Origin: an uncultured Omnitrophica bacterium
GTDB lineage: Bacteria; Omnitrophota; Gorgyraeia; JACQQV01
DNA length: 64,000 nt
Assembly: GCA_947085655.1 (NCBI GenBank)
Contig: CAMTXH010000013.1
Span: forward strand, 23,513-87,512
Direction: 5' to 3'
The notes under the pieces are model-generated. The model ran no database searches. It saw only the letters and a program-made list of their open reading frames with translations, and was not told the origin of the DNA. Positions 52,147-53,679 of the stretch are shown in pieces. Both the position numbers and the translations under genes were made by a program. Within the stretch, counting starts at the first letter, position 1. Each line of letters starts with the position of its first letter.

Positions 52147-53679
52147 ATGAAACGGCAACCAACCCTAAAAATTATTTCCTTCCTTGCAGCGGAGATCTTC
52201 CTCTTTTCCTCCGTTCTCCCTGTCTCGGCATTCGGAATCGAACACCAAAACCTCCGGCCTTCTGCAAGCGATGGGGCAAACCGTAGCAACCTGGCGCAGG
52301 AACTTAGAAAAGGCAGCGCCCTGGATGCAGAGGACGGCGGAACCAAACAATGGCTTGGTTGGCCGACGGATATCAGCGCTCATCCTTCTGAAGAGACGCT
52401 CCGTGACGCTTCGAAAATTTTGTTAAACGGAAAGAGGGGCTATAGCCGAAATCTCCAACGTCTCTTGCGTCAGCATGCACGGCGCTACAACGGCTTTACT
52501 CTTTTAAGGATCGAGCCGATCCAGCTCGAAAGGGCGCTGAATCAAGAACGGGAAGTCATTCCCAAACAATTTAACGTTGTATCACACTATTACCGGACAG
52601 GGGATCGATTTGCGCCTATTGTGATCGGCGGTTTGAATCAGAAGGGGACACTTTTCATCATCGACGGGAATCACCGGGCAGTCCATGCAATGAAATCGCG
52701 GATTCCCATTTATGCCTATGTCGGAAACTCTGTTCTTAGGCAGGTGAAAGAAACATTGGGAAAAAGGCCCGAGAAAAAGTGGTGGGCCAGGCACCGTCAA
52801 CCTCACAAGGCGCGGGCCTTCTCCGCCCCCGAAAAGGAAAAACAAGGAGGAACTTCGGAAGCCAGGGACAGGGGAGATCAGGCCCGTCTCGAATTGAGCA
52901 GCTATGAGGCCCTCTTGAATGAGGTGTTGAAGGAGGTGGCACAGAGGCGAGGGCAGAAGGGAGGAGGTCAATTCTGGATCGGTGTGAACGGCGTCGGAGG
53001 ATCAGGCAAGACGAGACTTGCAAAAGAGTTGGCGAGCCGGCTCAAACAGCAAGGCGTTCATTCGTTATGGCTTTCGGAAGATCTATGGGTCATCGACCGG
53101 CCGACGCGGAACGAATGGGAGCAGGAACAGGAGCCACGGTTCTTCAGGGATTGGAATTGGGTGCGCTGGCCGGAACTACAGGAGGCCCTGGGCACGGTTC
53201 GGGCAATATCACAGGGAACAGCGCGGCTTAAGGGGCTCTATAATCGCTCGGAGGGGGGTCGCACAAATTTAGAAATAGAGGAAGAAATTTTTCCTGATAC
53301 CGTCGTGGTTTACGACGGCATGTATCTTGCCAATCCGGAACGTTACCCCCCTGGTTCATTTGGCCTTTTCGTCTTCCTGGATATTCCAAACGAACTGAGT
53401 CTTGACCGCATGATCGAACGGGATCTTGCATTTGGACGTTCCCCTGAAGACACTGAGAAACTTTTCCGACTCGTCTACGACCCTTCCTGGAACGCCTACG
53501 TCGAGAATACACACCCCAAAAGGAGAGCAGACCTTGTATACGATATGACGGACTTTGAACGTCCGGCTCGCCTCCTCTACGGAGACGAGGCGCGGGATGG
53601 GGGAGAACGTTTTCTGAGTCTCCCCGGCGCCGGTCGCCTCACTGTTCCAGAGCCCTCCCCGGCCCTCCTCAGTCCTTAA
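52147..53679 (+). CDS. Signal-peptide protein combining a ParB/Srx-like motif (IIDGNHR) with a P-loop nucleoside/nucleotide-kinase-like domain
   Basis: Signal peptide or anchor MKRQPTLKIISFLAAEIFLFSSVLPVSAFG; FIIDGNHRAVHAM; Walker A GVNGVGGSGKTRLAKELASRL; hydrophobic strand plus Asp (VVVYDGMYLANPE), resembling the uridine-kinase/PRK family. Confidence 0.55.
   Translation: MKRQPTLKIISFLAAEIFLFSSVLPVSAFGIEHQNLRPSASDGANRSNLAQELRKGSALDAEDGGTKQWLGWPTDISAHPSEETLRDASKILLNGKRGYSRNLQRLLRQHARRYNGFTLLRIEPIQLERALNQEREVIPKQFNVVSHYYRTGDRFAPIVIGGLNQKGTLFIIDGNHRAVHAMKSRIPIYAYVGNSVLRQVKETLGKRPEKKWWARHRQPHKARAFSAPEKEKQGGTSEARDRGDQARLELSSYEALLNEVLKEVAQRRGQKGGGQFWIGVNGVGGSGKTRLAKELASRLKQQGVHSLWLSEDLWVIDRPTRNEWEQEQEPRFFRDWNWVRWPELQEALGTVRAISQGTARLKGLYNRSEGGRTNLEIEEEIFPDTVVVYDGMYLANPERYPPGSFGLFVFLDIPNELSLDRMIERDLAFGRSPEDTEKLFRLVYDPSWNAYVENTHPKRRADLVYDMTDFERPARLLYGDEARDGGERFLSLPGAGRLTVPEPSPALLSP

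Follow-up and report, generated by a model that had tools for sequence, protein, structure and literature searches.

The 64,000-nucleotide (nt) stretch of DNA analysed here (the window), from an uncultured Omnitrophica bacterium, holds an open reading frame (ORF) at positions 52147-53679 whose product combines a predicted signal peptide, a ParB/sulfiredoxin (Srx)-like segment with the motif IIDGNHR and a P-loop kinase-like domain. The locus raises the question of why two such domains stand behind a signal peptide in one polypeptide. Our comparison with the few relatives of the protein indicated that the ParB-like module and the kinase are independent, swappable cargo and not a conserved bifunctional unit, and that both are carried in a common frame of signal peptide, leader, DGG junctions and tail. 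We tentatively propose, at slightly under even confidence, that this gene's product is an effector-like protein with several cargo modules which leaves the cytoplasm via Sec, is probably processed and belongs to a small undescribed family.

Relatives of the protein and exchange of modules

A whole-protein search of 5.8 billion (5.8e9) clusters yielded only two relatives, P0002 and P0003. When amino acids (aa) 66-216, which cover the ParB-like module, were searched with phmmer against 1.84 billion representatives, only one true homologue was detected, P0004, 48% identical over its aa 481-617. A query of concatenated leaders added P0006, P0007, P0008 and P0009, so that the family comprises eight proteins including the window protein (P0001). 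The concatenated query circumvented the false negatives that short-alignment queries can give: a leader-alignment profile scored 88-118 bits on four members locally, yet its database search at E <= 10 was empty. A search of genome contigs with a family-alignment profile found no relative.

The N-terminal 65-76 residues and the kinase of the window protein recur in P0002 and P0003, which lack its aa 66-245 and have two unrelated modules after the kinase. P0004 (locus L010, 5082-8108) has the window-type N-terminus and the ParB-like module without the kinase; its modules follow in the order GNAT, unknown module, ParB-like module with a small CsrA-like domain, and S-adenosylmethionine (SAM)-methyltransferase. 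The cargo was helical and of unknown type in P0006, included an HELWH (HExxH) module in P0007 and a RamC_N domain in P0008 (95.6 bits), and was long and T/A-rich in P0009. At least six modules of the family had no Pfam match, PDB sequence searches with cargo modules of P0007, P0003 and P0002 gave no match, and PADLOC gave no defence-system match for family members beyond generic P-loop and methyltransferase similarity.

Because each domain occurs without the other among the seven relatives, the pairing of ParB-like module and kinase is not fixed, and their fusion in the window protein is incidental. A first-pass annotation, made from the window sequence alone, had implicitly treated the two as one bifunctional unit and missed their independence; the pairing is not conserved in P0002, P0003 or P0004. 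It had also stated that the architecture matches no characterised family, which was borne out by Pfam, NCBIfam and the large-scale protein searches.

The exchange of cargo was also seen at one orthologous locus. P0002 (L005, 964-2874) and P0003 (L007, 924-2636) lie between flanks that are 75-80% identical at the nt level, and the convergent Pterin_4a gene downstream is 78% identical in nt and 80% in aa. Their leaders are 72-90% identical in nt, with 70-81% identical codons among identical residues, whereas their kinases are only 46-61% identical in nt, with 20-50% identical codons and 47% aa identity over the kinase columns. The modules after the kinase are unrelated, and the tails are similar again. 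The locus is a cargo-swap hotspot in which cargo has diverged well above the flanks; variable cargo within a conserved frame and conserved flanks is a signature of conflict-type proteins.

The conserved frame

The frame (leader, A[RK]DGG junctions and tail) is the unusual part of the protein and was not noticed in the first pass. The features of the window protein are as follows (coordinates in the window, strand, description).

52147..53679, +, whole gene; ATG start, 510 aa plus stop
52147..52230, +, Sec-type signal peptide, aa 1-28; predicted signal peptidase I site between V-S-A and F
52231..52341, +, post-signal leader, aa 29-65; NLRPSASDGA, a short NLAQELRK segment and the first junction, AEDGG
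52327-52341, +, first junction AEDGG
52342..52761, +, probable ParB/Srx-like module, aa 66-205 (core aa 115-205); from P0004 homology, PHROG and hhalign
52663-52677, +, DGNHR of the motif IIDGNHR (aa 171-177)
52762..52887, +, basic linker, aa 206-247; 13 K/R in the 46-residue stretch aa 205-250, predicted local distance difference test (pLDDT) <50 at aa 208-247
52855-52875, +, degenerate junction EARDRGD between ParB-like module and kinase, aa 237-243
52888..53580, +, P-loop kinase module of the PRK/uridine-kinase type, aa 248-478; from PF00485, 1rz3, Foldseek and motifs
52990-53013, +, Walker A GVGGSGKT, aa 282-289
53074-53088, +, SEDLW (acidic-Asp-x-aromatic motif), aa 310-314
53302-53319, +, Walker B VVVYDG, aa 386-391
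53407-53424, +, RMIERD of the lid RMIERD..GR (aa 421-431)
53590..53604, +, terminal junction ARDGG, aa 482-486
53605..53676, +, C-terminal tail ERFLSLPGAGRLTVPEPSPALLSP, aa 487-510

The frame begins with a hydrophobic region (h-region) that is almost invariant in the family, LLVAE(A/L)FLFSS(V/I)LPAWA, with the window version IISFLAAEIFLFSSVLPVSA. Residues I10, S11, L13, A15, E16, F18, L19, F20, S22, L24, P25 and A28 are invariant between the window protein and P0002/P0003, whose mature parts are only about 48% identical to it. The glutamate in the middle of this region (VAE; Glu16 in the window protein) is likewise conserved, always eight residues past the last basic residue of the N-terminal region (n-region). 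Sec signal peptides do not usually have a conserved glutamate at this place, and dedicated machinery may recognise it.

The sequence (H/N)LRPSxAKDG(G/A) follows 6-15 residues past the predicted cleavage site in all eight proteins, and LRPS..DG and the leader-terminal DGG are invariant across all members. All 24 DGG tripeptides of the eight proteins stand in an A-[RK]-DGG context (A at -2 in 21 of 24, R or K at -1 in 20 of 24), and the tripeptide is enriched, with seven observed in P0004 against 0.54 expected. Members carry one to several cargo modules, each closed by A-[RK]-D-G-G. These junctions coincide with module borders, and modules are swapped exactly at them; in both of its carriers the ParB-like module starts directly after DGG (GWPT..SA.PS). 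Since the junction codons differ between copies, the conserved entity is a peptide and not a DNA recombination site. A tail of 18-39 residues past the last DGG is present in six of the eight members; it closes with SP in P0001, P0002, P0003, P0007 and P0008 and with FP in P0004. Leaders and tails had no model in Pfam or NCBIfam, and a literature search returned nothing on the ARDGG/AKDGG motif; the frame is undescribed in Pfam, NCBIfam, PHROGs, PADLOC or the searchable literature.

The kinase module

The uridine-kinase/phosphoribulokinase-type P-loop kinase named in the first pass was confirmed both by hidden Markov model and by structure comparison. PF00485 (PRK/Udk) matched aa 278-464 with an E-value of 8.3e-9 and 36 bits, above the gathering cut-off of 22, and P0002 and P0003 scored 39 and 25.8 bits. 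The closest solved relative by sequence was 1rz3_A (E 2.3e-9), and uridine kinase 9y3v and phosphoribulokinases were also matched. In the AlphaFold2 (AF2) model the kinase core was the only confident part (pLDDT 65-90), and Foldseek with this model returned UCK2, PRK, 1rz3, pantothenate kinase (PanK) and glycerate 3-kinase (GLYK) at E-values of 4e-8 to 1e-5. The key residues of the kinase motifs are invariant in P0002 and P0003, and with its motifs intact the module appears to be a catalytically competent member of the superfamily.

The NCBIfam cut-offs for Udk, PRK and PRK07667 were not reached, with scores of 25-41 bits against the 180-236 required (TIGR00235, 38.9 against 220; NF004018, 37.3 against 180; NF005655, 28.1 against 236; NF005807, 40.8 against 221). 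With scores so far below the cut-offs, the module has no orthologue among the named kinases and represents a new and divergent member within a known superfamily.

The ParB-like module

The two copies of the module, in the window protein and in P0004, were searched independently against PHROGs, and ParB-like families were the only annotated matches for both. The E-values were 1.7e-4 (phrog_1033), 1.3e-2 and 0.24 for the window copy, and 5.9e-4 (phrog_723), 5.3e-3 (phrog_12305) and 7.3e-2 for the P0004 copy; the match persisted with the full-length window protein as query (E 3.1e-3). When phage genomes were searched with tblastn, the top matches were ParB-like nuclease domain proteins at an E-value of 0.4, which is non-significant alone. 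The hhalign comparison with gp45 of mycobacteriophage phiGD20-1 (Pfam DUF6551) gave an E-value of 1.8e-4 and a probability of 48% over about 50 columns, pairing LLRIEPIQLERAL...FIIDGNHR with LLHVDPIVQRAL...FIIDGQHR. The predicted order of secondary structures is compatible with the ParB/Srx fold, in which the elements run beta-alpha-beta-beta-alpha-beta and the DGxHR/GxxR loop comes after strand 3. Taken together, these matches suggest that the DGNHR module probably belongs to the ParB/Srx superfamily, of which it is a new, very rare branch.

The canonical ParB CTPase clamp has a GERRxRA-type arginine patch (Box II), a helix-turn-helix (HTH) DNA-binding domain and a ParA-binding LG[KR]G motif (bioRxiv 10.64898/2026.05.05.722872). 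The window module has DGNHR instead of GERR and gave no HTH, ParBc or TIGR00180-type match; judged by its motif, it is of the DGxHR type and not a canonical GERR clamp. It probably binds or hydrolyses a nucleoside triphosphate (NTP) or acts on nucleic acid. Behind the module, both proteins that have it continue with a strongly basic linker, which hints at a polyanionic substrate.

In P0004, a small beta-rich domain (aa 640-745) lies behind the ParB-like module and inside the same DGG-bounded module. It has weak similarity to CsrA (PF02599, E 0.09, aa 716-742), a possible hint at RNA as the target.

Evidence for export

The signal peptide given in the first pass was supported by its anatomy, by its near-invariance in the relatives and by an extreme exclusion of cysteine. 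The call rests on inspection and hydropathy. The window protein begins with MKRQPTLK (+3, no acidic residue), followed by the h-region IISFLAAEIFLFSSVLPV (mean Kyte-Doolittle 2.09 over 15 residues) and V-S-A at -3/-1, and no second transmembrane-like window was found by hydropathy in the 510-aa protein. Across the family the n-regions carry charges of +1 to +5 and no acidic residue, and the single hydrophobic segment is followed by P-x-x-A-x-A. By sequence, this n-region, h-region and AxA-type site have the anatomy of a signal peptidase I substrate. An ordinary and unrelated signal peptide is present in the small ORF at 50523-50828, and the conserved one is therefore not simply the default of the organism.

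The eight proteins contain two cysteines in 4742 residues, while 49 were expected from the 21 other genes of the window (1.04% Cys; Poisson P ~5e-19). The window protein is cysteine-free, and one of the two cysteines of the family lies inside a signal peptide. Cysteine exclusion this strong is typical of proteins that pass through membranes in an unfolded state or reside in oxidising surroundings. The 173-kb host contig encodes an LpxA-type acyltransferase, which indicates that the host is probably diderm, and a protein exported by Sec would therefore arrive in the periplasm, perhaps on its way to a further destination.

Other types of leader were considered and rejected. A lipoprotein signal would require a cysteine, which the window protein lacks; for a Tat signal, RR was found only in P0008 and P0009; and for a prepilin signal there is no Gly before the conserved Glu, which lies eight residues past the last basic residue. 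A double-glycine leader of a C39-peptidase (PCAT) substrate was rejected since the leader follows a Sec-type signal and has its hydrophobic residues at -5, -10 and -14, not at -4, -7, -12 and -15; no ABC/C39 gene was found in any gene context examined.

The gene and its neighbours

The identical 510-aa protein was found on contigs of at least four independent assemblies, namely the metagenome-assembled genome GCA_964374045.1 at NCBI (the 173-kb contig) and three Logan assemblies, and the ORF at 52147-53679 is therefore a real, intact gene. Its GC content is the same as that of its surroundings. The neighbours are those named in the first pass: downstream an ORF6N fragment, then NUDIX+WHD_NrtR, then NadA. 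An aminotransferase gene lies upstream.

The ORF6N protein (53748-54077, +, 109 aa) matches the N-terminal 55-76 residues of the PADLOC candidate-defence family PDC-S05 (E 2.7e-18). The PDC-S05 models are 177-306 long, and the end of the ORF6N gene overlaps the start of nrtR; the protein looks like a truncated remnant. The frames of nrtR, nadA and a gene for a CPBP/Rce1-like intramembrane protease (54058-56470, +) overlap or abut (54741/54747, 55670/55673), which suggests one operon. A functional link of the gene under study to nrtR-nadA was rejected because the relatives are not beside NAD genes, and a link to the CPBP/Rce1-like protease was rejected because this gene is absent near every other family member.

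Further features of the window include a bufferin locus (8360-11002, +; also L025, 17182-19169), of the ribosomally synthesised and post-translationally modified peptide (RiPP) type, in which a BufA1 precursor (PF10048) is followed by the MNIO maturase BufB. The latter is fused to HvfC_N (NF050167, 359 bits, cut-off 310), and a YceI gene precedes the locus. Six kb upstream of the ORF under study, the region 41039-45532 (-) encodes a protein of 1497 aa in which FG-GAP repeats are faintly recognisable and which may be a large surface protein; an ORF of 211 aa follows it. Neither rRNA nor any other Rfam family was found in the 64-kb window, and no further family member was found in about 80 kb of the host contig.

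A distant branch with glycolysis-type enzymes

The DNA pattern (N/H)LRPSxAKDG gave three genome matches and six metagenome matches, of which three of three and five of six were chance matches outside real ORFs. The remaining one, L015 (1-9247 of ENA UPTA01000104, an activated-sludge contig), was genuine and contains three tandem genes on the + strand. Gene 1 encodes PFK, a GAPDH C-terminal domain and a C-terminal domain of about 190 aa that recurs in gene 2 and stands behind a DGG. The products of genes 2 and 3 each have a signal peptide, NLRPxxAK and DGG junctions: in gene 2, DNLRPAAAK...KDGG precedes a PGI-like domain, and ISADGG precedes the C-terminal domain that it has in common with gene 1; in gene 3, ENLRPSPAKDGG...TPKDGG precedes a PPDK_N domain. 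The three products contain 1, 1 and 0 cysteines in 1208, 947 and 866 residues. They look like exported or compartment-targeted glycolysis-type enzymes with a related leader and junction grammar. A literature search returned nothing on exported glycolytic fusion proteins.

Proposed explanation and alternatives

The reading that we favour, with the reserve stated at the outset, runs as follows. Sec would move the unfolded, cysteine-free chain across the inner membrane of the diderm host, signal peptidase would remove aa 1-28, and the leader, the tail or both would route the protein further. The A[RK]DGG junctions would be exposed inter-module linkers and most likely processing sites at which modules are released. 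Because both modules need nucleotides, their most plausible site of action would be one with ATP, in or on another cell, where they would be effector-like enzymes. Export, cleavage at DGG, destination and substrates are in this account what we infer. A wider claim would take signal peptide, HLRPSxAKDG leader, A[RK]DGG junctions and SP-ending tail as the marks of a bacterial export-and-processing system not known before, which would carry strings of cytoplasm-type enzymes (kinases, acetyl- and methyltransferases, ParB-fold NTPases and, in the distant branch, glycolytic enzymes) out of the cytoplasm and free them by cutting at the junctions; it is possible and, in our judgement, rather doubtful.

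Several results weigh against the favoured reading or its parts. Three different sequence excerpts gave no match to Pfam ParBc (PF02195) at E <= 10, and neither did the N-terminal half match anything in Pfam or NCBIfam, nor the module profile in a PDB sequence search. With a pLDDT of 46, the AF2 model of the module could not support a fold test, and its Foldseek matches were noise; the evidence for the ParB/Srx assignment consists of E-values of about 1e-4 and an hhalign probability of 48%. The relation to ParB/Srx proposed in the first pass thus stood at moderate significance, by sequence comparison with PHROGs and hhalign, and found no counterpart in Pfam ParBc. In the seven gene contexts, none of the neighbours was a conserved gene for a protease, a transporter or an immunity protein. 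Since the junction EARDRGD is degenerate, the ParB-like module and the kinase may stay fused in the window protein. The L015 enzymes look less toxin-like and more like enzymes sent to a compartment.

The least improbable of the alternatives, though still unlikely, is that the protein does housekeeping work for its own cell, such as nucleoside or sugar scavenging, as an enzyme in the periplasm or anchored in the envelope; its N-terminus would be either a signal peptide or an anchor that stays uncleaved, and its DGG motifs would serve only as flexible linkers. The signal peptide anatomy, the cysteine exclusion and the position of the genes among housekeeping genes, with no secretion apparatus nearby, would fit such an enzyme. 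It is hard to reconcile with cargo that is far more diverged than its flanks and swapped at an orthologous locus, with the extreme rarity of the family, and with a kinase, a GNAT and a SAM-methyltransferase that need ATP, acyl-CoA and SAM; to our knowledge, none of these is available in the periplasm. Slightly less likely again is a single bifunctional enzyme, in which the ParB/Srx-like module is an NTP-binding or regulatory partner (CTP-switch or SerK-like) of the kinase and both serve one substrate. The modules are adjacent in one polypeptide and may not separate at their degenerate junction, but 40 residues of basic, low-confidence linker lie between them, P0002 and P0003 possess only the kinase of the two, and P0004 possesses only the ParB-like module, beside other domains.

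We consider it improbable that the leader sends cytoplasm-type enzymes not to the outside but into a compartment of the producer, whether bounded by a membrane or proteinaceous. This explanation was kept open because enzymes of a pathway are easier to place in a compartment with ATP than in the role of toxins: the PGI-like, PPDK_N and PFK+GAPDH proteins of L015 are nearly cysteine-free, have DGG at domain borders, and make sense only where ATP and NAD are present. Against it, no shell or organelle genes were found in any context examined, the L015 leaders are distant (a local profile search missed the one L015 protein tried, the PPDK-like one), and the cargo of the window family (ParB-like, RamC_N, HExxH, GNAT, methyltransferase) is closer to effector repertoires than to a pathway. 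Somewhat more improbable still is a polymorphic toxin of the classical inter-bacterial kind, paired with its cognate immunity protein. It would account for the conserved N-terminal trafficking part, the junction motif and the variable cargo that includes a ParB-fold domain with DGxHR. Downstream of the genes, however, no small immunity-like gene was found, only the ORF6N fragment and nrtR in the window, the convergent Pterin_4a gene at P0002/P0003 and ilvD at P0004; RHS, filamentous haemagglutinin (FHA), PAAR, VENN or DPxGL elements were not found in the family, and several cargo modules per protein are atypical. That the protein is an artefact of chimeric assembly, pseudogenization or chance motifs is hardly credible, given the independent assemblies, the intact frame, the catalytic residues conserved in homologues and the unremarkable GC content.

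Comparison with known systems

The kinase of the window protein shares with the PRK/Udk family (PF00485) the Pfam gathering score, Walker A, the (E/D)D-x-aromatic motif, the hhhhDG Walker B, the R..RD..GR lid and the fold. It differs from that family in being cysteine-free, in lying behind a signal peptide and in being bracketed by DGG junctions. P-loop small-molecule kinases are known as delivered effectors or toxins, such as the zeta toxins and AvrRxo1. For the ParB-like module, the best pairwise profile match is with the DGQHR-type ParB-like proteins (DUF6551), represented by phiGD20-1 gp45, which was deposited as a 'ParB-like nuclease domain protein'; gp45 is a cytoplasmic phage protein, whereas the window module is putatively exported.

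ParB-fold domains with a DGHHR motif occur as toxin cargo in polymorphic toxin systems (PMC3482391), and some CdiA proteins carry at their C-terminus, directly behind the VENN demarcation motif, the ATPase toxin ToxB, which has a ParB fold (bioRxiv 10.64898/2026.05.05.722872). The window module is similarly a divergent DGxHR cargo, probably of the ParB superfamily, of a putatively exported modular protein, directly after a conserved demarcation motif. It differs in that it is internal and not C-terminal, has no CdiA, RHS or VENN frame and no immunity gene, and misses Pfam ParBc (PF02195), the family through which ToxB was found. With polymorphic toxins in general, the family shares a conserved trafficking part, a demarcation motif and variable cargo, while no immunity gene was found in the contexts examined and the known trafficking domains (RHS, FHA, PAAR, WXG, MafB-N) had no Pfam match in the family.

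MARTX toxins carry unrelated enzyme modules in one exported polypeptide, which are exchanged between strains and cut at short inter-module sites; they have their own cysteine protease domain, glycine-rich repeats and type I secretion. The window family has a similar string of modules without the cysteine protease domain, the glycine-rich repeats or type I secretion, and cleavage at A[RK]DGG would be its counterpart of the inter-module cuts. In the curli subunit CsgA, the N22 segment after the Sec signal peptide targets an unfolded, disulfide-free chain to an outer-membrane channel. The leader of the window family is similarly placed; it has no sequence similarity to N22, and no CsgG-like gene was found in the contexts examined.

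If the proposed explanation is true, a diderm bacterium exports nucleotide-dependent enzymes that should be of no use in its own periplasm, which would imply delivery to another cell or to an unrecognised compartment. As the family is tiny, with eight members among billions of proteins, any dedicated machinery should then be identifiable by phylogenetic profiling of the host genomes. The ParB/Srx fold and a Udk/PRK-type kinase would join the exported cargo, extending the finding of ParB folds as toxins. By analogy, the frame follows the trafficking, demarcation and variable-cargo logic of polymorphic and MARTX toxins, from which it differs in the lack of an immunity gene, a known trafficking domain and an internal protease. 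A[RK]DGG would then be a new searchable demarcation motif, usable to mine unknown effector domains and comparable to VENN in CdiA and DPxGL in Rhs.

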